Origin: a virus
Length of the DNA: 64,000 bases
IMG/VR virus record: IMGVR_UViG_3300047281_000098
Span: 41,265-105,264 of that record
Strand: one strand, 5' to 3'
Made by a program: the position numbers and the translations under genes. Below, one piece after another: positions 1,922 through 47,800 of the stretch. Every line of letters begins with the position of its first letter. The first letter of the stretch is position 1. Under the pieces are notes generated by a model. It ran no database searches, had not been told where the DNA came from, and saw only the letters and a list, made by a program, of their open reading frames with translations.

Positions 1922-2353
1922 ATGAACGAAACATTTTTATTCTTTTCTTATGGTATGCTGACTAACAATGATGTTATGCCTCAGGGTGCTGAAAGACTTG
2001 GCCCAGCTGCCTTGCCCGGATTCGAATGGGAAATGTTATGCTATGCCAATGTGTATGACAAGCCCGGCAACATGGTATTGGGTGTACTTTGGGAAATTGA
2101 TTACGACATCCTGGATGATCTAGATCACCGAGAAGGGTACCCCTCATTCTACGGACGAGTATATGCGGATATTATCCATGAAGGCATTCCTAAGCAAGCT
2201 TGGGTTTATGTCATGACAGAAGATTATCGCAAAATTCTTCGTGATACGCCACCGTCGGCTTCGTATGTCAGAACTGTTATCGAAGGATTCGCAACAGATG
2301 GCATTACCATGCCAAATTTAAATGTAGCTGAACTTGGCTACGAAGCATACTAG
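1922..2353 (+). CDS. gamma-glutamylcyclotransferase (GGCT/AIG2-like) family protein
   Basis: FFSYGMLT N-terminal motif, GVLWEI, LDHREGYP..Y.R. Confidence 0.8.
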   Translation: MNETFLFFSYGMLTNNDVMPQGAERLGPAALPGFEWEMLCYANVYDKPGNMVLGVLWEIDYDILDDLDHREGYPSFYGRVYADIIHEGIPKQAWVYVMTEDYRKILRDTPPSASYVRTVIEGFATDGITMPNLNVAELGYEAY

Positions 2354-2354
2354 T

Positions 2355-2963
2355 ATGGCAACCAAAGTAACTAAAGTAACTAAATCTAAAACTCCAGCTG
2401 ATGAAAAATTCGGAAATCAAGATTTTGATTTATTCGAATCGCTGGCAGCAATGGATAAAAAAGACTATGGATATCTTGAACGCCTGACTGAAGAACAACA
2501 AAAAAAGTTTGTTCCATTTATGATGACTCATTGGATGAGCGCGGTATCAGGTAGCGGTGATGTAGCTGGATACTATGTTCGCAGTGTGGATCATTATGCG
2601 AATACTCATTTGTTCAATGAAGTAGTACAAAAACATCCTAAGCTTCAATGGTTGATGCTGTGCGCTTCAAGTCCTAACTTAGGTAAGCAATTTCACAAAT
2701 GGATTCCCCACCTTAGTGGTAAAGTAAGTTTGTTAAAAGAGCCAGCAAAGACTAAAGATGTCAAAGAGTACTTTAATAAGATTTATCCCAAGACAAGCGA
2801 AGATGCCATCGATGGCGCAGCTAAAGCGTTTGTATCCGATCATAAACGCAAGTGTCATTTAGCTGAACTATTCCCTAATTTAAAGCAAGCTGATATCGAA
2901 ACTCTTAATCAACTTATTACAGATGCCGACATTGCTCAATATGATAAAGACCGCGGAAACTAA
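2355..2963 (+). CDS. clamp loader small subunit, T4 gp62-like
   Basis: KKFVPFMMTHWMS ... HPKLQWLML ... KQFHKWI resembles gp62 family; ATG at 2355 follows the upstream TAG. Confidence 0.55.
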   Translation: MATKVTKVTKSKTPADEKFGNQDFDLFESLAAMDKKDYGYLERLTEEQQKKFVPFMMTHWMSAVSGSGDVAGYYVRSVDHYANTHLFNEVVQKHPKLQWLMLCASSPNLGKQFHKWIPHLSGKVSLLKEPAKTKDVKEYFNKIYPKTSEDAIDGAAKAFVSDHKRKCHLAELFPNLKQADIETLNQLITDADIAQYDKDRGN

Positions 2964-3642
2964 TCCAGTAAAATATGAATGTGAATTTTGTAAGAGAGAA
3001 TTCGCAAAGGAAGCCACGGTATTCAAACATATATGCCAATACAAACATCGTTGGGTTGAACGCGACAAGAAGGGCAATCGTATTGGATTTCAAGCTTGGC
3101 TACAATTCTATACTCGCAACAGCACAAGTAAAAAGAATAGGACCGTTGAAGAATTTATCAAAAGTCCGTACTACAACGCATTTGTAAAATTTGGCAATTA
3201 CTGTGCGGAAATTAATGCGATAAGCGTCAGTAGATTCATTGATTGGTTACTGAAAGAACAGATAAAAATTGACACCTGGTGTCAAGACAGTGTTTATACA
3301 AAGTTTCTGATTGCTTATACCAGAATCGAAGATCCAATGGACGCGATTGTTCGCAGCATTGAAACAACTATTAAATTAGCTGAAACAGAATCAATTCAAT
3401 CACATGATTGTCTACGATATGGAAATGTAAATCGAATTTGTTATGCCATTACCGCAGGGAAGATAAGTCCATGGTTGTTGTATCAAAGCGACAGCGGAAC
3501 AACATTTCTGTCTAATCTAACTTCTGATAATGTTTCAATGATTCTTGATTATATCAACCCAGAGCAATGGGCTATTAAGTTCAAAAGATACCCAGAAATT
3601 GCTGCTGAAGTCAAAGCATTGTTACGAGCAGGTGGCTATTGA
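2923..3642 (+). CDS. hypothetical protein with N-terminal zinc finger
   Basis: YECEFCKREF...KHIC. Confidence 0.7.
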   Translation: MPTLLNMIKTAETNPVKYECEFCKREFAKEATVFKHICQYKHRWVERDKKGNRIGFQAWLQFYTRNSTSKKNRTVEEFIKSPYYNAFVKFGNYCAEINAISVSRFIDWLLKEQIKIDTWCQDSVYTKFLIAYTRIEDPMDAIVRSIETTIKLAETESIQSHDCLRYGNVNRICYAITAGKISPWLLYQSDSGTTFLSNLTSDNVSMILDYINPEQWAIKFKRYPEIAAEVKALLRAGGY

Positions 3643-3667
3643 CATTTAATCCATAATCTGTTATAAT
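3639..3667 (+). promoter_or_regulatory. consensus sigma70 promoter with extended -10, heading the LRW cassette array
   Basis: TTGACA(3639-44)-17 nt-TATAAT(3662-67) with TG extension; ATG 6 nt downstream (leaderless). Confidence 0.88.
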
Positions 3668-3673
3668 ACAGAT

Positions 3674-4009
3674 ATGAAGACATTATACGACCTTGAAAGT
3701 ACGGGCTTACATAGTTTTAAGCGAGGTGAACTAACATTGTTCACTGCTTATAGGCAGTCTGGCAAAAGTATGCTTAATCAATTGTACGGGACAATTATGA
3801 CAAAAGGAAACTTTGAGATAACAGATCAGGCCCCAGTAGATGGAGAGACTTGGTATACTGTTGCGTGTGTCAGTGTCGTATGCGAATGGATGCGTGAGCA
3901 ACCCAAAGAATTGTGGCACGAACACATTGACCTTAGGTGGATTCATTATTCAAACAAGTTTGACATACATGAAAAACTCTATACCGTGTTAGCACTGCGA
4001 TGGAGCTAG
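3674..4009 (+). CDS. LRW-array ORF 1; N-terminal helicase Walker-A-like fragment
   Basis: FKRGELTLFTAYRQSGKSM; ends LALRWS*. Confidence 0.75.
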   Translation: MKTLYDLESTGLHSFKRGELTLFTAYRQSGKSMLNQLYGTIMTKGNFEITDQAPVDGETWYTVACVSVVCEWMREQPKELWHEHIDLRWIHYSNKFDIHEKLYTVLALRWS

Positions 4010-4236
4010 AACTAAGTGAAGGTGGAATACACGGTGCCAGGTATTATATAGTCAGACCCTGGCCATGGGACTCGCACATCACCTGGCTCACAATGGAAGC
4101 ATGGGCTATTGGAACATTCGGACCAGACGGTGGCTCTATTTGGAATAATCTTAACTCACGCTGGTATATGAATAATAGCAAATTCTGGTTTCGCACTGAA
4201 GCGGATCGTACTTTTTTTATATTAAGATGGCAATGA
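4000..4236 (+). CDS. LRW-array ORF 2
   Basis: ends FWFRTEADRTFFILRWQ*; its ATG lies within the preceding CGA-TGG codons. Confidence 0.75.
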   Translation: MELELSEGGIHGARYYIVRPWPWDSHITWLTMEAWAIGTFGPDGGSIWNNLNSRWYMNNSKFWFRTEADRTFFILRWQ

Positions 4237-4433
4237 GAATTCAAAAAGTGTCCAGCAGTGACAACATACATGCTCCTGGCGAATATATGTATAAAATTCA
4301 TGACCACTGTAAAGATAGCGACACCCTGAGGGGGTGGAGAGACGAAATCAAGTTGGATTGTCTCATTTACTCCAATGTTGCTTATTTCAATACCGAAACA
4401 GATGCTATGTTTTTCATACTGAGATGGCAATGA
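4233..4433 (+). CDS. LRW-array ORF 3
   Basis: ATGA overlap; ends FNTETDAMFFILRWQ*. Confidence 0.75.
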   Translation: MRIQKVSSSDNIHAPGEYMYKIHDHCKDSDTLRGWRDEIKLDCLIYSNVAYFNTETDAMFFILRWQ

Positions 4434-4594
4434 CTACCAATTACAGTTGGCAGTACAATGGTGCTGCCCCGTTCATAGATATCATGCAATGGTGCGTTGA
4501 TACTTTTGAAAATGCTAACTGGTCTGCCAACTGGGAAACTTTTAGTTTCAATAATGAAAAAGATTATGTTTGGTTTGTATTGAGGTGGCAATGA
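4430..4594 (+). CDS. LRW-array ORF 4 (minimal 54 aa module)
   Basis: ATGA overlap; IMQWCVDTF...W...FNNEKDYVWFVLRWQ*. Confidence 0.75.
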   Translation: MTTNYSWQYNGAAPFIDIMQWCVDTFENANWSANWETFSFNNEKDYVWFVLRWQ

Positions 4595-4833
4595 GAAAAC
4601 TAATTCCAAATAATATAACTGTTACTGAACAGATTGCGATCCATCGTCAGTTTTTTAATATGGTTGGAAAATGGCGTCGTAGTCAGCAGCCTGTTTTAAG
4701 AAAGGATGAATACTTGCAGTGTTTGGAAGAGGACAGCGGTGTTCGGTGCCAATATAGTAGCGGTGGTCAGTTGACAGGATTCGAAGTTATTGATGAAAAG
4801 ACTTATACCTGGTTTGTGTTGAAATGGACATGA
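4591..4833 (+). CDS. LRW-array ORF 5
   Basis: GAGGTG SD + ATGA overlap; ends DEKTYTWFVLKWT*. Confidence 0.75.
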   Translation: MRKLIPNNITVTEQIAIHRQFFNMVGKWRRSQQPVLRKDEYLQCLEEDSGVRCQYSSGGQLTGFEVIDEKTYTWFVLKWT

Positions 4834-5066
4834 ACGATACTACAAGTTGGATTACCTTTGGTAAAGACCATTATCATTTAAACAGGGTAATGGAGCAGTG
4901 GTGTCACGAACATATCGGGCAAGGTGGATGGGCACACGAAACACCAAAGGCTTGGGGATGTATGATGGGCGATAAGATTTGGGTAATGCATAGTATGTTT
5001 GGTAACACAACTTTTTGCTTTAAAGAAGAAAAAGACTTTATGTGGTTTAAGTTGAGGTGGGCATGA
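4830..5066 (+). CDS. LRW-array ORF 6
   Basis: ATGA overlap; MEQWCHEHIG...FKEEKDFMWFKLRWA*. Confidence 0.78.
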   Translation: MNDTTSWITFGKDHYHLNRVMEQWCHEHIGQGGWAHETPKAWGCMMGDKIWVMHSMFGNTTFCFKEEKDFMWFKLRWA

Positions 5067-5290
5067 GTTTTATAACAGTTTCGCGTAATTTGAACGCTGA
5101 TGAGTTAAGAGATTGGTTAGTCACCAATGTTGGAAAAGAGATCGGCAAGGGAGCTTATGCTAGAAAATGTGGCGACGGATGGGACTTGGATACGACCATT
5201 GGTTACAGGGAAATTCCCGCTGTCTTAAAATGGGGCATAACCATTGATGACGAAGCATTAGCAGTATTTTTTAAATTGAGGTGGGCATGA
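5063..5290 (+). CDS. LRW-array ORF 7
   Basis: SD + ATGA overlap; DWLVTNVG...DDEALAVFFKLRWA*. Confidence 0.78.
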   Translation: MSFITVSRNLNADELRDWLVTNVGKEIGKGAYARKCGDGWDLDTTIGYREIPAVLKWGITIDDEALAVFFKLRWA

Positions 5291-5601
5291 ATAATAAAAC
5301 AATTGAAGATTTTGTAATCCGTTACGGTGCCAAAGTAAATTACGAACAAAGACGCGACTATAATACTTATAATACTATGGGTAGGGCAATGGATTACTAT
5401 TCATTGGATTACTATGGCAATGGTAACAGCATAGTAGGCATTGAACTACCTTTAAAGGCATTTGAGCACTTAGTCAACTCGGATAATCAAGCTGATGTAG
5501 ACTATCAAGCTGGTAAGGAAGAGGCTCGCATTCGTGCTCGGTATCCATCAGTAGCAGAAGCGTATGCTCAATATAAAATGTTACTTGAACTATGCAGATA
5601 A
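5287..5601 (+). CDS. array ORF 8, hypothetical (lacks LRW end)
   Basis: SD + ATGA overlap; ends EARIRARYPSVAEAYAQYKMLLELCR*. Confidence 0.72.
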   Translation: MNNKTIEDFVIRYGAKVNYEQRRDYNTYNTMGRAMDYYSLDYYGNGNSIVGIELPLKAFEHLVNSDNQADVDYQAGKEEARIRARYPSVAEAYAQYKMLLELCR

Positions 5602-5987
5602 TTGAATATATTAAAGACAAGTATCTAACTTGGCGTACTGGCCAAGATAAGCAAACACGCGATTGGAATAAGTGGTTGTATGAAACTGTTCTATTTCGTG
5701 CTGACACGATTGAAAATATGTTTGTGAACTTTAAATACATACTACCAGTGTCCGTAGAGATATTTGATCTTGAAGAACCGTTTGGATGGGCACTGGGCGA
5801 TGACATTCGACAGTATATGTATCCTAACCGAGCATTAGGTGACTGTGCGGTTCATTACTTTGCGCGTGGGTTTCGCCATCAATGGGATGGTCGCTTTCAC
5901 CTTAATGAAATTAGCGGTGGTGATCAAGTGTTTATAGCAACTAACAACAGCAAGGATGCTATGATGATAGCATTGAAGTATTCATGA
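5592..5987 (+). CDS. array ORF 9, divergent LRW-type end
   Basis: overlapping start; ends NNSKDAMMIALKYS*. Confidence 0.72.
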   Translation: MQIIEYIKDKYLTWRTGQDKQTRDWNKWLYETVLFRADTIENMFVNFKYILPVSVEIFDLEEPFGWALGDDIRQYMYPNRALGDCAVHYFARGFRHQWDGRFHLNEISGGDQVFIATNNSKDAMMIALKYS

Positions 5988-6316
5988 ACGATTTACAAAT
6001 AGAAATACACAAGCGCACTATGAAGCTGCTATCTACTGTAATGGCACAATCTATTATAGGGGTGCAACCTATGCCAAATACTGGTATCTTCAATGTAAGG
6101 TTTAGTAAATCTAAATATAAATTCAACCGTGCTAAATGGTATGTAGCAGTGTATAACTACAACTATTATTACGAAGTAGTTGAATGGTGTGCTGAACAGT
6201 TCGGCCCACATCCCGAGCAACCAGATGCTTGGAGTCGTTGGGTACACAAATACGAAGATACGATTCACTTCCGTGATGAAAAAGATTATATTTGGTTTAC
6301 ATTGAGGTGGTCATGA
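5984..6316 (+). CDS. LRW-array ORF 10; N-terminal major-capsid (Gol-like) fragment
   Basis: MAQSIIGVQPMPNTGIFNVR; VEWCAEQFG...FRDEKDYIWFTLRWS*. Confidence 0.78.
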   Translation: MNDLQIEIHKRTMKLLSTVMAQSIIGVQPMPNTGIFNVRFSKSKYKFNRAKWYVAVYNYNYYYEVVEWCAEQFGPHPEQPDAWSRWVHKYEDTIHFRDEKDYIWFTLRWS

Positions 6317-6501
6317 AATTACTGGAAGACTACTCAGTATCATTGAGCGCAGACAGATGGATCAAAATAAAAGAACAATTAACAAAAGTTGAATCTAATT
6401 CATTGGTGTCTATTACTTGGACAGGTCCGTTTGAAAGAACCAGAATATTACGATTTAAATCTGAGAATGATGCATTGATATTTGTATTGAGGTGGAGCTA
6501 A
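6313..6501 (+). CDS. LRW-array ORF 11
   Basis: SD + ATGA overlap; ends FKSENDALIFVLRWS*. Confidence 0.75.
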   Translation: MKLLEDYSVSLSADRWIKIKEQLTKVESNSLVSITWTGPFERTRILRFKSENDALIFVLRWS

Positions 6502-6752
6502 TGATTACATATAAAGTACTGTGGACCGAGTTACCACATATTAAAGTACCGGTATTACACACGGTAATGTATGCTCACAGTACAGATGGAGTAGACGCAA
6601 AATATCAACGAAGTTATAAGGATCATTTAGTAGATGAGTGGTTAAAAGCAAACTGTCGGGCGCCTTACTATCACTCTACCTATCATACAGAAAAGTTTAT
6701 ACAATTTGAAGATGATGAAGATGCTATGTGGTTTTCTTTGAGGTGGTCATGA
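6501..6752 (+). CDS. LRW-array ORF 12
   Basis: SD + TAATG overlap; ends IQFEDDEDAMWFSLRWS*. Confidence 0.78.
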   Translation: MITYKVLWTELPHIKVPVLHTVMYAHSTDGVDAKYQRSYKDHLVDEWLKANCRAPYYHSTYHTEKFIQFEDDEDAMWFSLRWS

Positions 6753-7009
6753 TATATAACGAAATAGAACAAGACATTATAAACAGAGCAGGCAAGGAAC
6801 TATCCAGTGAAATTGACTTCCATGTACTTGCTGATTTATACTCACAAGACGGCTGGACTGAAGTTAATTTGCCGAGACAGCCCAGAGAAACAGTAGTTGA
6901 GATTCTATCCTGGTGTGCGAGTCATAATATTAAGTGCTATGGCAGAGGGCAACGATGGGTGTTTGAGAAGAAGCAAGACGCCTTGTTCTTTAGTTTGAGG
7001 TGGGCATGA
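6749..7009 (+). CDS. LRW-array ORF 13; N-terminal capsid-helix-like fragment
   Basis: EIEQDIINRAGKELSSEIDFHVLADL; ends FEKKQDALFFSLRWA*. Confidence 0.78.
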   Translation: MIYNEIEQDIINRAGKELSSEIDFHVLADLYSQDGWTEVNLPRQPRETVVEILSWCASHNIKCYGRGQRWVFEKKQDALFFSLRWA

Positions 7010-7185
7010 TTGTTACATTACCATATGATCCAGCATGGAAAGCATTAGAATGGGCTAAAGACCATTGTCCTGATTATGTTACTAATGAAGTACACCCCCA
7101 CAAAGCATGGATTCGCCCGATTCAGATTGACTACTTCTTTTCGTCCGAGCGAGATGCTGTATTTTTTAGTTTGAGGTGGGTATGA
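7006..7185 (+). CDS. LRW-array ORF 14
   Basis: SD + ATGA overlap; ends FSSERDAVFFSLRWV*. Confidence 0.78.
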   Translation: MIVTLPYDPAWKALEWAKDHCPDYVTNEVHPHKAWIRPIQIDYFFSSERDAVFFSLRWV

Positions 7186-7427
7186 AATACTTTAGCAGTA
7201 GCGGAGGCAACAATAAACCATACTTTGCCCATCGTATTAAATTACCCAAAGTGGTTAGTGAAGCATATGACTGGTGCTTAGAGTACCCAGATCAAGATAG
7301 ACCCTTTAGAAGATTCCATGTAGAATGGGATCATTATCCAGAGGGAAAATACGGGCATAAAGGTTATGAAATTATTCAATTTGAGTGGGAAGAAGCCGCC
7401 ATTATGTTTACATTGAGGTGGTTATGA
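7182..7427 (+). CDS. LRW-array ORF 15
   Basis: SD + ATGA overlap; ends FEWEEAAIMFTLRWL*. Confidence 0.78.
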   Translation: MKYFSSSGGNNKPYFAHRIKLPKVVSEAYDWCLEYPDQDRPFRRFHVEWDHYPEGKYGHKGYEIIQFEWEEAAIMFTLRWL

Positions 7428-7693
7428 GAGTAGAGTTTAGACAAGGTGTGCCTGACGGATGTGCCCGGTGGCTACGTGAGAATGTTGGACTGGGTAATAT
7501 TGAGGAAGACAGCAACAACAAGAGAACACGGCAGGGGATGATTGACATGCCTGAGTATGCTTGGTTCTATGAGCGGGTAGCAATTATACCCGACGATGCC
7601 TTGAGTCTGCTTTACGAGTCCATTCATTATGTTCCTACTATCACAGTTAAAGATCCCGAGTTGGCTACATTTTTTAGTTTGAGGTGGTTATAA
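7424..7693 (+). CDS. LRW-array ORF 16
   Basis: SD + ATGA overlap; ends KDPELATFFSLRWL*. Confidence 0.78.
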   Translation: MRVEFRQGVPDGCARWLRENVGLGNIEEDSNNKRTRQGMIDMPEYAWFYERVAIIPDDALSLLYESIHYVPTITVKDPELATFFSLRWL

Positions 7694-7908
7694 TGGTAGA
7701 CTGGCTTAATGACAGCTCTGACGAAGTTTATTGCGCTGATTCAGAAGCGTTTGAAAACTTTTTTCATGACTTCTGCCTAAATGGAAAAGCCAAAGGAGCA
7801 GAATGGGGTCCTGACTATTGGGAACAACATGGCATTAAGGTTGTGAACAGTAGAGTAGAATATGATACCCCTGCACATCGCACTATGTTTTTATTGAGGT
7901 GGTTATGA
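7693..7908 (+). CDS. LRW-array ORF 17
   Basis: SD + TAATG overlap; ends YDTPAHRTMFLLRWL*. Confidence 0.75.
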   Translation: MVDWLNDSSDEVYCADSEAFENFFHDFCLNGKAKGAEWGPDYWEQHGIKVVNSRVEYDTPAHRTMFLLRWL

Positions 7909-8168
7909 AGAAACCTAAACCAAAGAAGCCAAAAGCTAAAATACCCAAAGGTGCATTGATAGTTGACTACGGCTTGTATCGTGTAATCCTACCTTATAAA
8001 CACCCGATTGACTTGTATAATAACAAAGAATTAGATATAATATGTGAATGGTGCGATAGAACATTTCCAAAAGATGATTGGAGATGTAGCAGAAGTAGCT
8101 GGCCAGGTCATGTCTACTTTTTAAAAGAAAGCTATCTGACAATGTTTTTATTGATGTGGGCAAAATAA
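7905..8168 (+). CDS. LRW-array ORF 18, Lys/Pro-rich N-terminus
   Basis: MKKPKPKKPKAK; CEWCDRTF...W; ends TMFLLMWAK*. Confidence 0.75.
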   Translation: MKKPKPKKPKAKIPKGALIVDYGLYRVILPYKHPIDLYNNKELDIICEWCDRTFPKDDWRCSRSSWPGHVYFLKESYLTMFLLMWAK

Positions 8169-8169
8169 T

Positions 8170-8610
8170 ATGGTTCAGCTAACTAGACCTGTACCGCCAA
8201 AACCAAGCATGATACCGTGGCCATATAAGTTGCCTCGCAATAAATTAGAAAGACAAGAAGATATGGCTAAATGGGAAATACATAAACGAGCAGGCAATCT
8301 AGTAGAAGCTGCTTGGTGGCACTGGATGCCAGGGGTAACAATTAATGTTAAATGGCCTGTTGGTTTAGTATTTGTGCTTGATGAAAAAGATCGTCGGTGG
8401 GATTGGACCATGGGAACAACCAAGCAATCATTTGACTCGGCGGACCCTAACGACCATTATAGACCTTGGCTTGAAAAGAATGTTGGCAAGCAGGGATGGG
8501 ATTGGCAATGGGGACTTAGAGATAACAACGCAGCAGAGAATAGACTTACTATTAAAGTTAGAACTAAACATGCCAAGTGGGCAACAGTCGCCTCACTTCT
8601 GTGGGGATAA
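8170..8610 (+). CDS. LRW-array ORF 19 (long variant)
   Basis: PWLEKNVGKQGWDW...ATVASLLWG*. Confidence 0.72.
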   Translation: MVQLTRPVPPKPSMIPWPYKLPRNKLERQEDMAKWEIHKRAGNLVEAAWWHWMPGVTINVKWPVGLVFVLDEKDRRWDWTMGTTKQSFDSADPNDHYRPWLEKNVGKQGWDWQWGLRDNNAAENRLTIKVRTKHAKWATVASLLWG

Positions 8611-8613
8611 GTA

Positions 8614-8835
8614 ATGGATTTTGACTTCAACAAGGAAAAGCGATTTATCCTTGTCCCTGCTAATCTTGAGTTTTCAAAACTCATGGTCATACTAACTGAT
8701 ATGGACTATTGGAACACACATTACGAAGCACTCAAAGACTGGTGCGATCTACAACTAGGAACTAATCAAGTTGGGATGACGGTTGAGTTCGACAGTGAGC
8801 AGGACCTGATGTTGTTTATATTAAGATGGAGCTAG
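8614..8835 (+). CDS. LRW-array ORF 20
   Basis: DWC...VEFDSEQDLMLFILRWS*. Confidence 0.78.
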   Translation: MDFDFNKEKRFILVPANLEFSKLMVILTDMDYWNTHYEALKDWCDLQLGTNQVGMTVEFDSEQDLMLFILRWS

Positions 8836-8836
8836 A

Positions 8837-9103
8837 GTGAAACACATATTCAGAAATTTAATTCGCAAAGAGAAATGGACTCTTGTGGAAATTAAGCCGA
8901 CCAAGGACACAATGTGGTCTTCTGGTGGGGAAGATTTAAATCGGCAAGACTATATTAAAATGCGGAATTGGTGCGAACAAACTTTTCACAAAGAAGTATT
9001 CGCCACTTCATTACAATCAGTACACGGAGTTAGTCCTGGATTGAAACGATTCATATTCAACAATCCCGCAGATGCCACGATGTTCAGATTGCGTTGGGAA
9101 TGA
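8837..9103 (+). CDS. LRW-array ORF 21
   Basis: GTG start; NWCEQTF...FNNPADATMFRLRWE*. Confidence 0.75.
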   Translation: MKHIFRNLIRKEKWTLVEIKPTKDTMWSSGGEDLNRQDYIKMRNWCEQTFHKEVFATSLQSVHGVSPGLKRFIFNNPADATMFRLRWE

Positions 9104-9333
9104 CTAAGACCTCTGTTACAGTTTACGGTGCGTATGCTCCAATGCTAAAATGGCTAAGTGACAACATAGGCGCGGAGCTTCACAGTATGCCAATTGTTTT
9201 TTGGTACGGAAAAGGTTGGTTCATGAAACGCACATCTGATATTAGAGAAGAAAGAGTTGGACTCAGGGCTGGCTGGTCAGTTGATTTTGATGATGATCAG
9301 AATGCGACATGGTTCGCATTAATATGGGGATAA
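9100..9333 (+). CDS. LRW-array ORF 22
   Basis: ATGA overlap; KWLSDNIG...FDDDQNATWFALIWG*. Confidence 0.75.
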   Translation: MTKTSVTVYGAYAPMLKWLSDNIGAELHSMPIVFWYGKGWFMKRTSDIREERVGLRAGWSVDFDDDQNATWFALIWG

Positions 9334-9334
9334 T

Positions 9335-9610
9335 ATGGCAATTTTAAATACACACGCACATGGATACTTTAGAGCAGTTGAATACGAGACAATAGAAGTA
9401 ATAGACATGCCTCGCACCTACGGCGCCAAGAAAGTATACACGTATGATTGTAGGGCAAAGTCAGAAGATCCAAGCATTATTGTAAAATGGTGCAGAAGAA
9501 ACTTTGGGCAGCGAGGTGATGGTTGGGACTTTACTTTTCACTCAGACCGTGTTACAATAGAGATTACAAAAGACGAGTTTAAGACAATGTACGAAATGTG
9601 GAAACTATAA
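9335..9610 (+). CDS. LRW-array ORF 23 (divergent)
   Basis: KWCRRNFG.RGDGW...TMYEMWKL*. Confidence 0.72.
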   Translation: MAILNTHAHGYFRAVEYETIEVIDMPRTYGAKKVYTYDCRAKSEDPSIIVKWCRRNFGQRGDGWDFTFHSDRVTIEITKDEFKTMYEMWKL

Positions 9611-10155
9611 TGGCAAATAATGTAATGATAGATTTGGAAACGCTGGACACAAGTCCATTCTGCGTTATCCTCACGATTGGAGCAGTAGTATTCGACCCTA
9701 AGGGCAACGGTATCGTTGACAAGATTGATCTGCGACCTTCAATTGAAGAACAACTTGATATGGGCAGAGTTATCAACGATGAAACTGTTAAGTGGTGGGG
9801 CAATCAAAGTGAGGCGGCGCAACATGAAGCACTAGGTGATCATGACCGAATTCCCTTCAAGGAAGCAATGGAGAAACTTCATAAATTCTGTTGGAACAAA
9901 GGTAACCCCTGGAGTCACGGCGCAGCGTTTGACATTGTAGCAGTGGAAACATCTTGGGCCAGCTTTAAGATGCAACCACCATGGGACTTTTACAAAGTAC
10001 GAGACACACGAACATTGTTTGATGTTACTGGAGTGAATCTTAAAGACGGTGGTTATGTGACAACTCACAAGGCTTCCGAAGATGCGGCACGTCAGGCATT
10101 CATTGTACAGAAGGCGTATAAGATTCTCATTGCCGCCGGAGTAACCCCTCCGTGA
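9610..10155 (+). CDS. DEDDh 3'-5' exonuclease (DnaQ/RNase T superfamily)
   Basis: MIDLET (ExoI), HGAAFD (ExoII), HKASEDA (ExoIII); TAATG overlap. Confidence 0.85.
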   Translation: MANNVMIDLETLDTSPFCVILTIGAVVFDPKGNGIVDKIDLRPSIEEQLDMGRVINDETVKWWGNQSEAAQHEALGDHDRIPFKEAMEKLHKFCWNKGNPWSHGAAFDIVAVETSWASFKMQPPWDFYKVRDTRTLFDVTGVNLKDGGYVTTHKASEDAARQAFIVQKAYKILIAAGVTPP

Positions 10156-10159
10156 AATT

Positions 10160-10414
10160 ATGAAGATTAATCCTAAACTTAAACCAGACGAGTTAGCTCT
10201 TTTATCAGTAGATTCTGCTAGGAGATATTTTCTATTAAACGTTAATACCACTAAACTAGCACCGGACGAAGATTCTATACAGCATGAGTTTGCACTGTGG
10301 TTAGAAACAGAATACTCCTGTAAAATGTGGCGCCCGTATAAAGGAGCAACAAGACGGTTGAAATTTAATGATATGGCTAAATTAGTTTGGTTTAAACTCA
10401 AATATGAAATTTAA
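10160..10414 (+). CDS. hypothetical, outlying LRW-like C-terminus
   Basis: ends LKFNDMAKLVWFKLKYEI*. Confidence 0.65.
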   Translation: MKINPKLKPDELALLSVDSARRYFLLNVNTTKLAPDEDSIQHEFALWLETEYSCKMWRPYKGATRRLKFNDMAKLVWFKLKYEI

Positions 10415-11003
10415 CGGTGACGTTGACATTGATCTAGGAAACAGGGACTTACTGTTGGAACACATTAAGCATATTCCTGCGGCTATGCGTAATATAACAC
10501 CTATAAGAAAGCACTCCACTGGAATTCATATCACTGATATTCCATATGATCCTATCAATAATATCGCGTCAATTGACTATGCCGCTGCTGAATCGCGCGG
10601 GTATTTTAAGCTGGACTTGCTGAATGTTCATGTATATGCTAATGTACGTGATGAGTCACATTTAGTAGAATTAATGCGCGAGCCAGATTGGAATCTACTG
10701 AATGACAGAGAATTTGTAAGTACGCTTATACATTTAGGTAATCATTATCAAAGTATACAGCGTATGATTGAGCCTATCAATAGTATTCCCAGACTGGCTA
10801 TGTTTCTGGCAATGATCAGACCTGCAAAAAAGCATCTGATAGGCTTGCCATGGAGTGAGGTTGCGAAGACTATTTGGGAGAAAGATAGTGACGGCGGGTA
10901 TAGCTTTAAGAGAAGTCACGCAGTTGCGTATTCACAGTTAGTCACTGTACATATGAATCTGTTACAGGAAATGCCTGTTACGAAATTCTTTTCACAAGAG
11001 TAA
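10404..11003 (+). CDS. dnaE: DNA polymerase III alpha (C-family) catalytic fragment, second half of split DnaE
   Basis: DVDID, KHSTGIHI, GYFKLDLL, PINS..LAMFLAMIRP, GYSFKRSHAVAY in DnaE order. Confidence 0.82.
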   Translation: MKFNGDVDIDLGNRDLLLEHIKHIPAAMRNITPIRKHSTGIHITDIPYDPINNIASIDYAAAESRGYFKLDLLNVHVYANVRDESHLVELMREPDWNLLNDREFVSTLIHLGNHYQSIQRMIEPINSIPRLAMFLAMIRPAKKHLIGLPWSEVAKTIWEKDSDGGYSFKRSHAVAYSQLVTVHMNLLQEMPVTKFFSQE

Positions 11004-11358
11004 TGGATCTTCTTTTTGATCGACGCTTGCTTAGGTCTGACATACTACATACGGGGCCGTGTAGTATTACTAAGCTTTTGTTATTGAATGTTCTGATATA
11101 TGGTCTGAAGATTGCCCAATCTTCTTTTAAAAACAAGTTGATAGGGATAAGTCTGTTGCTTTCCCACCACCATATATCACCTAATTCTAGAAATTTCTCT
11201 TTAACTGCTAAGTCCTGTATAGCACCATAATCATATATAGTGGTAACGACATCATCACGATTCTGAACAATTCCCACGTAGTCTTGGCTGGCGTATGAAC
11301 AGATTGTGATGAAAGGGTGATTCTCGCTTAGGCGTTTAAAGAATTCGTTAGGTATCAT
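10978..11358 (-). CDS. hypothetical protein
   Basis: 126 aa ORF preceded on - strand by GATAAATA late-type motif. Confidence 0.7.
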   Translation of the reverse strand: MIPNEFFKRLSENHPFITICSYASQDYVGIVQNRDDVVTTIYDYGAIQDLAVKEKFLELGDIWWWESNRLIPINLFLKEDWAIFRPYIRTFNNKSLVILHGPVCSMSDLSKRRSKRRSITLVKRIS

Positions 11359-11463
11359 TGATAATGTGTATTAAGTTTATTTATCTGCGGAAAGAATTCG
11401 GGTATTATTCCTGAATGACTAAATATAAGATATGCTAAATATAACATTAGAAGCGAATAACAA

Positions 11464-12237
11464 ATGTATGCAACCTCAGTTTTCTCCTATATCCCTCGGC
11501 AAATTGTCGTTGTCTTATCCGGCAACTCGGTAAGGAAATATATGCCCGTTTATGCTAAACCACTCACATTACACAAAGGTGTCGACAACCAGCTGCAGTT
11601 TCAGTTCCTTAATCAAGAGCAGAAACCTGTTAATATCACTGGTGCGGAGATCACATGCCGTATTTTAAACTATCAAGGTAATACTGTGCTTCTTCAGAAA
11701 GCACTGACCCTACAATTAGCAGCCACAGGTATTGCTGCTCTTCAACTAAACGCAGCAGACATTGAGGGTATTGATCCACAAAAATGCTATTACACATTAG
11801 AAATTCCAGTTGGTAGTTTCAATTACCCAGTATTCGTGGATCAGAACGCAGGTGGTCGCGGTGATCTAAACATCGTTAATTCTATTCTACCAAGCTTTGT
11901 GCCGTCACAAAGTGTGTCTATTCCTACTGGGCAATTGTTCCCGAATAACAATTCAAGCGCAAATGCCAATTCAAACGCACTAACATATTTTACCAGTGTT
12001 TGGTCAACTGATGATAATCCAATTTCAACTATTCAAGCAGAATACACTGGGTTTTATGGTAACGTTCAGATTCAAGGTTCCACAATAGTAGACGGTGATT
12101 GGTATAACATTGGAAACACGTATGTCTATTCAAACGTATCCGATACCATTGGATATTCCTTTACTGGATATCATCCATACATCCAAGTACAATTCATCAG
12201 TAATATTGGTGATGTTACTAACATTTTAAGAAGATAG
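11464..12237 (+). CDS. putative virion structural protein (beta-rich)
   Basis: TAAATA motifs upstream; Asn/Thr/Gly/Val-rich. Confidence 0.55.
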   Translation: MYATSVFSYIPRQIVVVLSGNSVRKYMPVYAKPLTLHKGVDNQLQFQFLNQEQKPVNITGAEITCRILNYQGNTVLLQKALTLQLAATGIAALQLNAADIEGIDPQKCYYTLEIPVGSFNYPVFVDQNAGGRGDLNIVNSILPSFVPSQSVSIPTGQLFPNNNSSANANSNALTYFTSVWSTDDNPISTIQAEYTGFYGNVQIQGSTIVDGDWYNIGNTYVYSNVSDTIGYSFTGYHPYIQVQFISNIGDVTNILRR

Positions 12238-12281: not shown

Positions 12282-13268
12282 ATGAACATGTTTGATATTC
12301 TATCTATATTACCTGGCAAGAAAAAAACAACGAGTAGCGGCTGGACAAGTTTCAACGCTGTTTGTTGTAGCCATCTTGGACACAAGTCCGATCGCCGTAT
12401 GCGCGGCGGTATTAAGTTTGACGGTCAATCCAAATGGACCATGAACTGTTTCAATTGTAGATACTCATGTAATTTTGTATTAGGCAAATCAATAAGCCCA
12501 AAAACTAGACAGCTTCTTATTTGGTGCGGTATTGACAGTGAACAGATTCAACGATGGAGTCTGGAGAGTTTACAACATAAAGACTTACTGGACTTTTCAG
12601 GTGACGTTCTACCTCGTAAAAAAGTAAAATTCAAAGAGCAGGAATTGCCAACTGATGCTGAATTAATAAACGTAAACAACCCTGATCATAAGATATACAC
12701 TGACTATTTGATCAAACGACATATTGATCCTAATGAATATCCGTTTATGGTAACTCCGCATATTCAGGGTAGAAATAACAATCGCATAATTGTACCGTAT
12801 ACTTATAAAAATAAGATCGTTGGACATACTAGTAGATACCTAGATAATAAATTACCAAAGTATATCAATTCTCAACAGCACGGATATGTATTCGGATTTG
12901 ACTTTCAAAAACCTGAATGGAATATATGTCTGGTAGTTGAGGGTATATTTGATGCGCTGAGTTTGAATGCGTGCGCTACAATGCATAACACAATCAATGA
13001 CGATCAAGCACAGGTATTAGCACAGTTAAACAAACAGATAATAGTAGTACCGGATAGAGACCGTGCCGGATTAGAAATATGTAGTCGTGCGTTAGAGTTA
13101 GGATATAGTATTAGCTTACCAAATTGGCACGTTGATGTAAAGGATGTTAACGATGCGATAATCCGTTACGGAAAGCTTCCAACGCTAATGAGTATATTAC
13201 AAGCAGCCACGATGTCTAAAATTAAAATCGAAATGCAAAGGAAAAAAATTGAAAAAACAAGAATCTAA
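12282..13268 (+). CDS. DNA primase (T4 gp61/DnaG-like)
   Basis: N-terminal Zn ligands (CC...CFNC), TOPRIM VVEGIFDA, VPDRD, KDVND. Confidence 0.88.
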   Translation: MNMFDILSILPGKKKTTSSGWTSFNAVCCSHLGHKSDRRMRGGIKFDGQSKWTMNCFNCRYSCNFVLGKSISPKTRQLLIWCGIDSEQIQRWSLESLQHKDLLDFSGDVLPRKKVKFKEQELPTDAELINVNNPDHKIYTDYLIKRHIDPNEYPFMVTPHIQGRNNNRIIVPYTYKNKIVGHTSRYLDNKLPKYINSQQHGYVFGFDFQKPEWNICLVVEGIFDALSLNACATMHNTINDDQAQVLAQLNKQIIVVPDRDRAGLEICSRALELGYSISLPNWHVDVKDVNDAIIRYGKLPTLMSILQAATMSKIKIEMQRKKIEKTRI

Positions 13269-14688
13269 GAAACAACTTGAATATACTCCTGATGTTCAGA
13301 AATTATTTTTGCGAATGATGATAACTAACTCGGAGTTATACACCCGTGTTATGAACATTATGAACAGCGAGAATTTTGACAGATCGCTGCGCCCAGTGGC
13401 AGAAATGTTTAAAGAACATACTGACAAGTATAAGATTTTACCTGATGCCACTCAGATTAAAGCAACAACCGGGATTGATATTGAACCGGTGCCTGAATTA
13501 AGTGACGGACATTTTGAATGGTTCTTTGATGAGTTTGAAGCATTCACTAAGCGACAGGAACTTGAGCGTGCGATTCTTAAAGCAGCAGACTTGCTTGAGA
13601 AGGGTGATTTTTCTCCTGTGGAAAAGCTAATCAAGGACGCAGTTCAAATTAGCCTACAGAAAGACATGGGGACTGACTACTTTGCTGACCCCGCACATCG
13701 TATCAATAAGTATTTTAACTCAGGTGGTCAAGTATCAACTGGCTGGCCACAGATGGATCGTATTTTGTACGGTGGCATGAGTCGCGGCGAACTTAATATC
13801 TTTGCAGGTGGCTCTGGTTCTGGTAAGTCACTGGTCATGATGAATTTGGCATTGAATTGGCTACAAGTTGGATTGAGCGGAGTTTATATTACACTAGAAC
13901 TTTCAGAAGAACTAACCTCACTGCGTACTGATGCGATGTTAACCAGTATGGGAACTAAAGATATTCGTAAGGATATTGACAATACTGCTTTAAAGGTAGC
14001 ATTGATAGGGAAGAAGTCTGGTAAGTATCGTGTCAAGGGACTACCTGCGCAAAGTAATGTCAATGATATTCGTGCTTATCTGAAAGAAGTTCAAATTCAA
14101 ACTGGTATCAAGATCGACTTTGTTATGGTCGATTATCTTGACTTGGTTATGCCAGTATCTGTTAAAGTTAACCCCAACGACCAGTTTATTAAAGACAAAT
14201 ATGTAGCTGAAGAATTGCGAAATTTAAGCAAAGAATTAGGCGTGTTGTTAGTTACAGCATCACAGTTGAATCGTTCAGCAGTTGATGAAATTGAGTTTGA
14301 TCATAGTCACATTGCAGGTGGTATCTCTAAGATTAATACAGCGGATAACGTGTTCGGTATCTTCACAAGCCGTAGTATGCGTGAACGTGGTAAGTATCAG
14401 ATTCAATGTATGAAGTCGCGTAGTTCAACAGGTGTTGGTATGAAAGTTGATTTGGAATACAACATTGAAACGATGCGTATTACTGACGATGACCCTGAGG
14501 GATATGCGGATCAGCAAGCAAAATATACTCCTAAACCTAGTCCTAATGATTTAATGACTAGGATGAAGCCTACTCCATACACTGATATTTCTCAACTATC
14601 AGATAATTCAGAACCACTGACCAAGAAAATAGTGGCAAATGTTCAGGGTAGTAAACTAAATGCGCTACTGAATAGTTTAAAGAAATAA
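13249..14688 (+). CDS. replicative helicase (DnaB/T4 gp41-like)
   Basis: STGW, GGSGSGKS Walker A, VMVDYLDL, TASQLNR, KSR. Confidence 0.92.
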   Translation: MKKQESKKQLEYTPDVQKLFLRMMITNSELYTRVMNIMNSENFDRSLRPVAEMFKEHTDKYKILPDATQIKATTGIDIEPVPELSDGHFEWFFDEFEAFTKRQELERAILKAADLLEKGDFSPVEKLIKDAVQISLQKDMGTDYFADPAHRINKYFNSGGQVSTGWPQMDRILYGGMSRGELNIFAGGSGSGKSLVMMNLALNWLQVGLSGVYITLELSEELTSLRTDAMLTSMGTKDIRKDIDNTALKVALIGKKSGKYRVKGLPAQSNVNDIRAYLKEVQIQTGIKIDFVMVDYLDLVMPVSVKVNPNDQFIKDKYVAEELRNLSKELGVLLVTASQLNRSAVDEIEFDHSHIAGGISKINTADNVFGIFTSRSMRERGKYQIQCMKSRSSTGVGMKVDLEYNIETMRITDDDPEGYADQQAKYTPKPSPNDLMTRMKPTPYTDISQLSDNSEPLTKKIVANVQGSKLNALLNSLKK

Positions 14689-29333: not shown

Positions 29334-29362
29334 TTGACAATTAATCCATAATCTGATATAAT
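29334..29362 (+). promoter_or_regulatory. sigma70 promoter, near-copy of the 3639 promoter
   Basis: ttgacaattaatccataatctgatataat, 27/29 identical to 3639-3667. Confidence 0.85.
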
Positions 29363-29386
29363 AGACTCAACAGCAAGAAAGACTTT

Positions 29387-29578
29387 ATGAAGATTTTCAA
29401 TTCTTTTACCGTGAGCTATGTCGTTGTAGAAACCAATTTTGGCGATTTTAAAGTTGAAAAAAACGGATATATTACTCGTTGGGATGAAGAACTACACTCA
29501 TATGTTTGGGTCGATGAGGGAAAATTTAACAGTGATGAGCTTGAATCCATACGACAAAGAGGCTTGACACAAATTTGA
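29387..29578 (+). CDS. small early hypothetical protein
   Basis: 63 aa ORF between two consensus promoters. Confidence 0.6.
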   Translation: MKIFNSFTVSYVVVETNFGDFKVEKNGYITRWDEELHSYVWVDEGKFNSDELESIRQRGLTQI

Positions 29579-29592
29579 TAATCTGCTATAAT
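29564..29592 (+). promoter_or_regulatory. sigma70 promoter
   Basis: TTGACA-17 nt-TATAAT, spacer contains ATAATCTG. Confidence 0.85.
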
Positions 29593-29628
29593 AGCAGCTA
29601 TGACTAATTATAACCCCCGGAGCGCATA

Positions 29629-44802: not shown

Positions 44803-47800
44803 ATGGCACAAAATAATATTGACTTCGGAACATTTCCGGATGATCCTAGCGCAGACGCGATACGAACAGCATTTCAAAAAGTTCAAGACAACTTTGATCA
44901 AGTATTTGCTGTAACTACCGGAGCATCAGTTACTTCAGTAAATAAGACGCCCGGGGTAGGCATTACTGTTAGTTCTCCGATCGGAGATGTAGTTGTCAGT
45001 GCTAATATCGCATGTGTTCAAGTTAGTACCAGCTCACTAAGTATAGGACGCGGCAGTAACGGTGGAACATCAACTTCAATCACTGCGTCAAGTCAAATTT
45101 TAGTAATTGACATTAATCCAACTAATGTATTCTCAAACAGTTTTGCAGCAGTCGGAGGCGGTTTAGCAAATATTACTGGAAAATTAACAGTAGCTGCTAA
45201 TGCTCAACCAAACATTACATCAGTTGGTACTTTGACTACTTTAGCAGTATCAGGCAATATCTCGGCTGGAAATGTTGCTGCGACCACATTTACTGGTAAT
45301 TTTACTGGTAATGCCACAACAGCGGGTACAGTAACCACTGCTGCGCAGCCAAACATAACATCAGTTGGTACATTAACATCATTAGTAGTAACCGGTAACA
45401 TCACATCAGGCAATGCTAATTTAGGCAATTTAGCACGTGCTAACTTTATTCAAGGGACATTAACCACTGCTGCGCAGCCAAACATCACAAGTACAGGTAC
45501 ACTGTCTTCGTTAGCAGTAACTGGTAACGTAACAAGTGGAAATGCTAACTTAGGTAACTTGTTAATTGCTAACTTCCATCAAGGAACATTAACAACGGCT
45601 GCTCAACCAAATATTACATCAGTTGGTACTTTAACTGCTTTAGCTGTTACGGGAAATGTCACTTCAGGTAATGCTAACTTAGGTAACTTGTCAATTGCTA
45701 ACTTCATTCAAGGAACATTAACAACTGCTGCTCAGCCAAATATCACGTCTGTTGGAACATTAAGTTCTTTGGCAGTAACAGGTAACATTTCAGGTGCTAA
45801 TCTAACTGGAACTCATTATGGCGCAGCAACCGGACTAACAGCAATTCCGGGTGCTAATGTAACTGGTACAGTAGCTAATGCGACATACGCAGTAAGCTCA
45901 GGCACGGCCGGTAGTGCTACTACTGCAGGTACGGTAACAACGGCTGCTCAACCAAATATTACATCAGTTGGTACGTTAACTGCTTTAGCTGTTACGGGAA
46001 ATGTCACTTCAGGTAATGCTAACTTAGGTAACTTGTCAATTGCTAACTTCATTCAAGGAACATTAACAACTGCTGCTCAGCCAAACATCACTTCAACAGG
46101 TACTTTAACTGCGTTAGCAGTAACTGGTAATATTTCTGGTGCGAATATCACAGGTACTCATTACGGTGCAGCTACTGGACTAACAGCAATTCCGGGTGCT
46201 AATGTAACTGGTACAGTAGCTAATGCGACATACGCAGTAAGCGCGGGGACAGCGGGTACAGTAACAACTGCTGCTCAGCCAAACATCACTAGTACAGGAA
46301 CTTTAACTGCTCTTGCAGTAACTGGAAACATTACATCAGGTAACGCCAACTTAGGTAACTTGTTAATTGCTAACTTCATTCAAGGAACATTAACAACTGC
46401 TGCGCAGCCAAACATCACAAGTACAGGTACACTGTCTTCGTTGGCAGTAACTGGTAACATTTCGGCTGGTAATGTTTCTGCTACGACTTTTACAGGGGCG
46501 TTCACTGGAAATTCAACTACAGCAGGTACAGTAACAACTGCTGCGCAACCAAATATTACATCAGTTGGTACGTTGACTTCTCTAGCAGTTTCAGGTAATA
46601 TTACGTCGGGAAATGTTTCAGCAACAACTTTCACCGGTGCGTTAACTGGTCTTGCTTCAAGTGCGACAGTAGCTGCTTCAGCAAACGCCGTAGCAGGGGC
46701 GAATGTAAGCGGGCAAGTAGCAAACGCATTAGTAGCCGGCACTGTGTATACTGCGGCACAACCAAACATCACTAGTACAGGTACTTTAACTTCGTTATCA
46801 GTGACCGGCAATATATCCGCAGCAAACGTAAATGCAGCTACATTTGGAGCACATAACGGAACAGTCGGAGCATCTACTCCTAACACAGTGGCAGCAACTT
46901 CGATAACAGCTACGACAACAATAGCTGCTACTGGTAACTTGTCAGGTGCTAATATAAACACCGCTGGTGTTCTATCTGTCACGGGTAACGCTAATGTCGG
47001 TAATTTAGGTACTGCTGGATTAATCGTTGCAACTGGTAATATCACCGGTGGAAATTTAGTTACTGCTGGAAATTTATCAGTTACTGGTAATGCAATTATT
47101 ACTGGAAATCTATCAGCCGCAGTATTCACGGGCGCTGGAACTGGGCTTACTTTCTTGCCAGGTGCTAATGTATCTGGCACAGTAGCTAATGCGACATACG
47201 CAGTAAGTTCAGGTACAGCAGGTAGTGCTACTACAGCGGGTACAGTAACAACTGCGGCACAACCAAACATCACTTCAACTGGTACTTTAACTGCGTTAGC
47301 AGTCACTGGCAATATCTCCGGTGCTAACATCAATGGTACTTTCTATGGCGCAGCAACTGGACTAACTTCAATCCCGGGCGCGAATGTAACTGGTACTGTA
47401 CCACTTGCTGCAAGTGCTACTACAGCGGGTACAGTAACAACTGCGGCACAACCAAACATCACTTCAACTGGTACTTTAACTGCGTTAGCAGTCACTGGCA
47501 ATATCTCCGGTGCTAACATCACAGGTACTCATTACGGAGCAGCTACTGGATTAACTTCAATCCCTGGCGCGAATGTATCTGGTACAGTAGCCAATGCGAC
47601 ATACGCAGTAAGTTCAGGTACAGCGGGTACAGTAACAACTGCAGCACAACCAAACATCACATCAGTTGGTATATTAACATCATTAGCAGTAACCGGCAAT
47701 ATATCAGGTGCTAATGTAACTGGTACACATTATGGGGCAGCTACTGGATTGACTTCAATTCCTGGCGCGAATGTATCTGGTACAGTGGCAAATGCGACAT

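Follow-up and report, generated by a model that had tools for sequence, protein, structure and literature searches.

Hyperplastic regions of T4-type phages carry promoter-early stem-loop (PeSL) cassettes (Arbiol et al. 2010, PMC2839356; Comeau et al. 2014, PMC4122927). In Bacillus phage G, lineage-specific expansion of a tiny domain is represented by about 35 zinc-ribbon copies (Iyer et al. 2021, PMC7824862). Here we describe an array of 23 small open reading frames (ORFs), the LRW array, in which most proteins end in Leu-Arg-Trp (LRW) or a close variant. It lies in a window of 64,000 nucleotides, which is the whole stretch of DNA analysed and corresponds to bases 41265-105264 of the 105-kb IMG/VR record IMGVR_UViG_3300047281_000098 (CheckV completeness about 30%). 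The genome appears to be that of an uncultured giant freshwater phage known from metagenomes, a T4-related jumbo myophage of group 2.2 as defined by Iyer et al. (PMC7824862). Its helicase is 48-50% identical to the helicases of Phosso, Atu_ph07, and PA5oct, and its Zn-finger gene matches 121Q/Rak2-type phages, the homologue being gene 14 of 121Q. The array combines known principles with an undescribed, very large protein family. We think it fairly probable that a single joint sequence between its genes acts at once in the protein fold, in translation initiation, and in recombination.

PeSL-mediated modular shuffling is the nearest described system. In both cases, small non-core early ORFs are clustered between core-gene blocks of T4-related phages, and a short inter-ORF repeat acts as the homologous recombination site at which whole ORFs are inserted, deleted, or swapped. 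The PeSL repeat consists of an intergenic sigma-70 promoter and a stem-loop terminator for each ORF, an arrangement that the LRW array does not have. The LRW joint is coding DNA that comprises the last helix of a protein, a Shine-Dalgarno (SD) sequence, and ATGA, and a single promoter serves the whole chain. PeSL cassettes are unrelated ORFans, whereas LRW cassettes belong to one protein family. Indels and swaps of the PeSL type, with crossovers in the repeat, were seen for LRW joints in comparison with L103, the closest relative found (the hybrid joint at ORF3 and the neighbours of ORF8, see below). Flank proteins of L103 are 85-90% identical to those of the window, and the flanking coding DNA is about 80% identical.

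Translational coupling at ATGA or TAATG overlaps, with the SD sequence in the upstream gene, is a textbook feature of operons. The LRW array shares this geometry, as GAGG is placed 5 nt before ATG, but differs from textbook coupling in that the SD sequence is built into a conserved motif of the protein and recurs about 20 times in succession. Gene accordions of poxviruses, such as K3L amplification, are recent and near-identical tandem copies. In both systems, related viruses differ in how many copies of a small gene they carry, a host-interaction gene in the poxvirus case. The LRW copies, in contrast, share no more than about 30% identity, and orthologues of each occur elsewhere. The zinc ribbons of phage G are likewise tens of copies of one tiny domain in a jumbo phage; LRW proteins differ from them in their beta-alpha-beta-beta-alpha order, the lack of a metal site, their occurrence in group 2.2, and their chaining in one operon. 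The LRW family is not described in the survey of jumbo phages by Iyer et al. (PMC7824862).

The 23 ORFs lie on the + strand between 3674 and 9610 and encode 54-146 amino acids (aa), with stops and starts that overlap or abut. L(R/K)W-x-stop is the C-terminal ending of 17 of the 23 proteins, five end in the variants LMWAK, LLWG, LIWG, EMWKL, and LKYS, and ORF8 has no motif. An earlier reading of this DNA made from the letters alone (the original prediction) had counted exactly these ORFs, sizes, and endings. It had also proposed a perfect sigma70 promoter before the array and a position between a Zn-finger gene and an exonuclease/DnaE region. Both were confirmed (TTGACA-17-TATAAT, 12/12; phrog_11058, Rv2179c-like exonuclease, and phrog_11778). 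All 22 internal junctions are overlaps or gaps of at most 4 nt (ATGA at 16, TAATG at several others), and the stop-start geometry of a translationally coupled operon is found at every one of them. No terminators and essentially no intergenic DNA are present within the array, and one consensus promoter precedes the whole chain. The ATG of the ATGA and TAATG overlaps is the better start for these genes than the GTG inside AGGTGG that was chosen by the ORF lister.

The original prediction overlooked what the LRW codons seem to do, namely to double as an SD sequence and a recombination joint. They are mostly written TTG AGG TGG NNA TGA, which contains an SD sequence and the ATGA stop/start overlap. 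TTG AGG TGG occurs at 11 junctions, and the exact 15-nt sequence TTGAGGTGGNNATGA at 9, with 0 expected. The 105-kb contig holds 11 copies of TTGAGGTGG, all inside the array. GAGGTG, which is complementary to the 3' tail of 16S rRNA, is present at 11 junctions, with 5 nt from GAGG to ATG. AGG encodes 11 of the 16 motif arginines, compared with 4.4% of the arginine codons elsewhere in the contig (p = 4e-12). Motif and codon statistics in relatives were calculated for 208 members from 68 related loci. Among these, 49% of the arginines in the motif are encoded by AGG, and this codon is commoner at junctions with an overlapping next start (odds ratio 3.3, p = 0.002); LRW is present in 157, and W followed by one residue and the stop in 191. 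LRW is also written CTG CGA, TTA AGA, CTG AGA, and TTG CGT in the window, and with GC-rich codons (CTC CGC) in Phosso. Because LRW is kept with other codons, the motif is an ancestral part of the last helix whose codons were chosen for the next gene, and it is selected at the protein level as well. Since the shared ending would double as the ribosome-binding site of the next gene, whole genes could be swapped between phages like cassettes.

We searched 1.84 billion proteins with a family profile made from the 23 window sequences and counted clusters as representatives at 50% identity. The profile recovered 2,056 clusters at E <= 1e-3, nearly all of 56-155 aa with the domain at the C-terminus. 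To avoid circularity, a foreign-only profile was built from 100 outside sequences, none of which reached 60% identity to a window ORF. It recognised 21 of 24 candidates at E < 1e-3, and ORF8, ORF9 (0.009), and ORF19 (0.33) failed. Several pairs of window ORFs align over 50-85 aa (E 1e-5 to 5e-10). The proposed C-terminal core in 22 ORFs is therefore a real family, but ORF9 and ORF19 have motif remnants only, and the core is the whole 55-aa domain.

The AlphaFold2 model of ORF4 (pLDDT 87) has the order beta-alpha-beta-beta-alpha. Residues 30-91 of ORF23, a divergent member, were modelled in the same order (pLDDT 80-89) with a disordered N-terminus, and the two models share the full fold beyond the last helix, in agreement with the single small scaffold domain originally suggested. 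The LRW domain is thus predicted to be an unnamed core of about 55 aa that closes the protein at its C-terminus. Its landmarks are W-C in the first helix and F-x-L-R-W in the second. W21, C22, W31, F40, F49, L51, and W53 are nearly invariant in the family. Nearly all conserved residues are buried and either aromatic or hydrophobic, and no polar constellation hinting at catalysis or metal binding was found among them. N-termini, loops, and surface charge differ, and the pI of the array proteins ranges from 4.1 to 9.8.

Searches of Pfam and PHROGs with the members and 63 homologues gave no match for the LRW domain. A profile search of the PDB gave chance-level matches only (E 0.09 or higher), and Foldseek against the PDB found nothing at E <= 0.001. 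A wide structural search with VIA-align reached Z 6.2 and 6.4 at best (CinA, DCoH/PCD, secretin N-domains, RRM, KH), which is within the noise range; these matches represent a common and generic two-layer alpha/beta arrangement. Homology with RRM, raised by the original prediction, was not supported beyond this likeness, as the ORF model is without the fourth strand and RRM/KH chains score Z 4.5-5.5 among many unrelated alpha/beta sandwiches. Apart from one protein of Agrobacterium phage Atu_ph07, the BFVD neighbours were uncharacterised and came from uncultured Caudovirales, and the ESM Atlas gave unnamed viral clusters only. Megablast of 3000-11000 and tblastn of one family member found no match in 50,697 phage records, and a protein homologue search limited by shared words gave 2 matches only. 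Among cultured jumbo phages, the profile found 33 copies in Sinorhizobium phage Phosso, 6 in Atu_ph07, 3 in PA5oct, and 0 in 121Q, all annotated as hypothetical. The Phosso copies are scattered over many unrelated genome positions and have FKLRWS endings written with CTC CGC TGG.

The features of the region are listed below (window positions). E values are those of the foreign-only profile, unless another search is named, and "not in L103" marks members that L103 lacks.

2923..3642, +, Zn-finger gene, left fixed flank; phrog_11058, unknown function; more than 600 relatives in IMG/VR
3639..3667, +, sigma-70-type early promoter, TTGACA-17-TGnTATAAT; 12/12 consensus match
3674..4009, +, ORF1, 111 aa, ending LALRWS; E 2.8e-4
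4000..4236, +, ORF2, 78 aa, FILRWQ, member; E 5.1e-20; 92% aa identity to the L103 orthologue
4233..4433, +, ORF3, 66 aa, FILRWQ, member, not in L103; E 6.9e-9
4430..4594, +, ORF4, 54 aa, minimal domain; E 1.8e-14; AlphaFold2 pLDDT 87
4591..4833, +, ORF5, 80 aa, FVLKWT, member; E 6.5e-5; profile matches the C-terminal part only
4830..5066, +, ORF6, 78 aa, FKLRWA, member; E 3.6e-17
5063..5290, +, ORF7, 75 aa, FKLRWA, member; E 3.2e-6; aligns with ORF22 over 78 aa at E 6e-8
5287..5601, +, ORF8, 104 aa, non-member within the chain; no profile, Pfam, or PHROG match; L103 orthologue, dN/dS 0.39
5592..5987, +, ORF9, 131 aa, IALKYS, doubtful member; E 0.009 in the wrong region; L103 orthologue, dN/dS 0.21
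5984..6316, +, ORF10, 110 aa, putative N-terminal copy of gp23 'Gol' plus LRW domain; E 6.6e-25
6313..6501, +, ORF11, 62 aa, member; E 8.6e-9
6501..6752, +, ORF12, 83 aa, member; E 7.4e-11
6749..7009, +, ORF13, 86 aa, member; E 1.6e-8
7006..7185, +, ORF14, 59 aa, member; E 2.3e-8; 67% identical orthologue in L022
7182..7427, +, ORF15, 81 aa, member, not in L103; E 7.2e-10
7424..7693, +, ORF16, 89 aa, member with a long loop insert; E 3.9e-4; 54% orthologue in L013
7693..7908, +, ORF17, 71 aa, member, not in L103; E 7.7e-6
7905..8168, +, ORF18, 87 aa, FLLMWAK, member; E 1.6e-11; dN/dS 0.11 against L103
8170..8610, +, ORF19, 146 aa, SLLWG, membership unsupported; E 0.33; 83% aa identity to L103, dN/dS 0.13
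8614..8835, +, ORF20, 73 aa, member; E 2.7e-10
8837..9103, +, ORF21, 88 aa, GTG start, member; E 7.8e-14
9100..9333, +, ORF22, 77 aa, FALIWG, member; E 3.5e-7
9335..9610, +, ORF23, 91 aa, MYEMWKL, conserved anchor member beside the exonuclease; E 1.3e-6
9610..10155, +, Rv2179c-like 3'-5' exonuclease, right fixed flank; Pfam PF16473 at 1e-32; phrog_255
10160..10414, +, ORF25, 84 aa, FKLKYEI, 24th member past the exonuclease, not in L103; E 6.6e-6
10404..11003, +, DnaE-type DNA polymerase fragment, flank; phrog_11778 at 5e-55

Three other features of the window were noted. Different pieces of a DnaE-type polymerase are located in two small ORFs about 48 kb apart (10404-11003, phrog_11778; 59169-59675, Pfam DNA_pol3_alpha positions 20-94), a split of the polymerase that is usual in this phage group. 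Just upstream of the array, the replication module contains a gamma-glutamyl cyclotransferase-like (GGACT/AIG2) gene at 1922-2353. A 3,094-aa ORF at 44803-54087 lies amid tail genes and is without a Pfam match at E <= 0.001.

We collected related loci in IMG/VR via the flanking Zn-finger gene. The 46 loci that hold both flanks have 0-17 members, all on the same strand, in an interval of 289-6,041 bp, and orthologue clustering gave 39 orthogroups and 62 singletons. The order is stable within sub-lineages and differs among deeper relatives. These loci, together with the reordering in L103, bear out the expectation that number and order vary between fixed flanks. ORF23 is a recurrent last member, with orthologues in 15 related loci and 14 invariant columns. 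121Q has the syntenic Zn-finger gene but no array, and the polymerase fragment comes almost immediately after that gene. The L103 array (7.8 kb) is reordered, with losses and gains relative to the window. In window numbering, its order is 1, 2, 4, 5, X, 6, 12, 13', 8, 9, 10, X, 16, X, 14, 7', X, 11, 18, a radical-SAM gene, and 19-23; ORFs 3, 15, 17, and 25 are absent. The radical-SAM gene (L103:8405-9343, 312 aa, Pfam 1.6e-14) is inserted mid-array.

Two differences from L103 bear on where the exchanges occur. Where ORF3 is missing, L103 has a single hybrid joint, whose left half corresponds to the ORF2 end and whose right half corresponds to the ORF3 end and ORF4 start, with the crossover in the F-F-I-L-R-W codons. 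In the case of ORF8, homology to L103 begins inside the joint, and the upstream neighbours are different cassettes. Crossovers are located within the junction block. The comparison shows that the 15-40-nt coding joint is the sole DNA common to the cassettes, and that homologous recombination in it adds, deletes, and reorders whole genes while frame and expression are kept. Among the database proteins, the last approximately 20 residues of P0026 (ORF16 type) are tandemly duplicated at its end, and two LRW domains are fused in each of P0065 and P0090. Such proteins would be expected products of unequal recombination or stop loss at the joint.

The ratio of nonsynonymous to synonymous divergence (dN/dS) was 0.11-0.47 in 15 orthologue pairs with L103, and third codon positions were the least conserved in nearly all orthologue pairs, indicating that the ORFs are translated genes under purifying but relaxed selection. 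The three flanking genes with usable dS gave dN/dS of 0.03-0.05, and cassette dN was about 3 times flank dN. The dS of many cassettes (0.08-1.0) is far under that of the flanks (1.5 or more), which implies more recent exchange of single cassettes. ORF4 and L103:3580-3741 gave dN/dS 0.98 at dS 0.08, with dS of 1.5 or more in flanking core genes, and this low dS is a sign of very recent single-cassette exchange. Over alignments of at least 50 aa, the most similar paralogues reach about 30% identity, and no pair exceeds about a third. Repeats in the array are limited to the joints (38-56 nt, 60-82% identity). We found no long near-identical repeats and no template/variable repeat pair, and no reverse transcriptase (RVT_1) in the 105-kb contig, which represents about 30% of the genome. 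The paralogues are old and divergent, with orthologues of many of them in other phages.

The promoter at 3639-3667, with its TG extension, is the only 12/12 match in 2000-12000. Near-consensus sigma-70 promoters in the contig number 27 on the + strand versus 2 on the - strand, most of them with the TG extension, an arrangement typical of early promoters in T4-type phages. The array promoter and the ATG form a stretch of about 40 nt that is identical in L103, where the flanking coding DNA is about 80% identical. This complete conservation in a relative and the consensus match agree with the strong host-type early promoter proposed in the original prediction. The ATG of ORF1 is located 6 nt after the -10 box, and the first codons change conservatively in L103. 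The simplest reading is that ORF1 is leaderless and that coupled reinitiation follows along the chain. Host RNA polymerase would start at the consensus promoter, and the first cistron would begin at or beside the 5' end of the transcript. Ribosomes would then be passed between successive genes through the ATGA/TAATG stop-start overlaps, the SD sequence (GAGGTG) of each next gene being formed by the Leu-Arg-Trp codons that close the last helix of the previous protein.

Two further observations concern the early promoters. Near-consensus promoters at 3639-3676 and, upstream of the window, at G000:C1:3790-3830 and G000:C1:4085-4125 are followed by ACAGAT/ACAGAC/ACATAC and then by ATG exactly 6 nt past the -10 box, an arrangement that suggests leaderless early mRNAs. 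A conserved leader, AGATACTTAAACAGCAACA, follows many of the 27 + strand promoters (G000:C1:2861-38990, upstream of the window; window 29334-29600), and these regions look like a PeSL-like repeated regulatory cassette.

The conserved buried core combined with varied N-termini, loops, and charge indicates that the LRW proteins are most likely non-enzymatic binding modules with different targets. Their most likely role is that of early host-interaction or anti-defence proteins, which would be made early and act on host or defence proteins. The clearest candidate decoy is ORF10. Its N-terminus (5984-6110) is homologous to the most conserved stretch of gp23 around GVQPM, more clearly so in its many homologues, which match Pfam Gp23 (positions 4-51) at 2.5e-9. 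By tblastn, matches were found in capsid genes of 696 phage records. The ORF10 type is the commonest among the top database matches. The alignment to T4 gp23 covers about residues 96-125, which fits the Gol region, presumably residues 93-122. The 29-residue Gol region, the most conserved part of gp23, binds EF-Tu and activates the e14 Lit protease (PMC3014915). ORF10 and gp23 are alike in this N-terminal homology, but ORF10 has a fragment of about 35 aa joined to an LRW domain under an early promoter. ORF10 may be a decoy that presents the capsid Gol region. When the contig, which covers about 30% of the genome, was searched for Pfam Gp23, no capsid gene was found, and control genomes were silent too. 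In ORF1, residues 17-34 (RGELTLFTAYRQSGKS, 3722-3775) weakly resemble Walker A of the phage's DnaB-like helicase (13249-14688); with a pairwise E of 0.002 and 8 of 500 shuffles scoring as well, this kinship is too weak to claim. A broader reading, which we regard as speculative and rather unlikely, is that the LRW domain is a universal small carrier for bait surfaces or copies of core proteins of jumbo phages, forming an early swappable library of decoys and inhibitors against abortive-infection sensors. ORF10 would display the Gol region, for example, and ORF1 perhaps the helicase P-loop, and the dual-coded joint would have evolved so that phages trade countermeasures one gene at a time.

Overall, we favour with moderate confidence the reading of a hyperplastic early region in the replication module, in which old LRW paralogues would be expressed by coupling, recombine at their joints, and act as binding modules. 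It was weighed against four other explanations. The LRW proteins could instead be accessory or regulatory replication subunits, that is, small adaptors for the exonuclease, the split DnaE polymerase, the primase, or the helicase. The array is set between replication genes in every relative, ORF23 is the best conserved member, always last and with its stop abutting the exonuclease start, and ORF1 is weakly like the helicase Walker A segment. On the other hand, L058, L011, and L083 have the same replication genes and hold 0-2 members, 121Q has none, about two thirds of the loci are without an ORF23 orthologue, content and order vary between close relatives, and the Phosso copies occur in many unrelated places. 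We consider a replication role improbable on balance. Slightly less probable still is that the cassettes are mostly dispensable or selfish passengers, spread by a self-chaining joint without specific benefit to the phage. Such passengers would explain the patchy presence and absence, the many singletons, and the synonymous divergence of several cassettes far under that of the flanks, which points to recent exchange; the joint would guarantee expression at any landing site. However, purifying selection (dN/dS 0.11-0.47) was detected in all pairs except one short, nearly identical pair, the domain core is kept across more than 2,000 clusters and distant cultured phages, and the strong conserved promoter implies costly high expression.

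The original prediction had described the array as an accordion-style expansion and a hypervariable library. The large copy number and the variable N-termini and loops would suit a recent gene accordion or active diversification of the type driven by diversity-generating retroelements (DGR). The paralogues are old, at about 30% identity or less, which argues against both. No pair is above about a third identical, long near-identical repeats and a template/variable repeat pair were not found, the 105-kb contig has no reverse transcriptase, dN/dS is below 1, and many members have orthologues in other phages. We abandoned both terms and hold this origin to be very improbable. Hardly any weight remains for the explanation that the LRW ending is a mere by-product of an SD nucleotide signal in otherwise unrelated ORFs. 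The strong codon bias to TTG AGG TGG and the spacing of W, one codon, and stop in 191 of 208 relatives are what it would produce, but it is already contradicted by homology over the whole 55-aa domain and by two models with a common fold, and LRW is retained with non-SD codons in the window and in the GC-richer Phosso.

Several points weigh against the reading that we favour. Six junctions are without a good SD sequence (AGA, CGA, CGT, or AAA codons). No terminator was found before 3639, so that read-through from upstream promoters is possible. Transcription, the leaderless start, and coupling are all deduced from the nucleotide sequence, and the PA5oct homologues lie outside the region termed early in the PA5oct paper. 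The ends of high-scoring segment pairs near joints are partly expected, because the joints resemble one another and alignments run slightly into any of them; the hybrid joint is the stronger evidence. No homology backs any function, and the structural matches are generic (Z at most 6.4). The array also lies amid replication genes with ORF23 conserved beside the exonuclease, and a replication-linked role fits this as well.

The LRW family comprises more than 2,000 clusters at 50% identity, is found in phages only, is unnamed, and lacks an entry in Pfam, PHROGs, or the PDB. Its arrays occupy up to 6-8 kb in abundant freshwater jumbo phages, and three cultured phages carry the family. The joint would be a compact case of one sequence under three constraints, as a protein helix, a ribosome-binding site, and a recombination site, and it would offer simple gene-by-gene exchange that preserves expression, distinct from the PeSL mechanism of T4-type phages. 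Should the LRW proteins turn out to counter defences or take over the host early in infection, the arrays would offer a wealth of new small inhibitors, and the Gol-bearing cassette would provide a direct handle on capsid-sensing defences.

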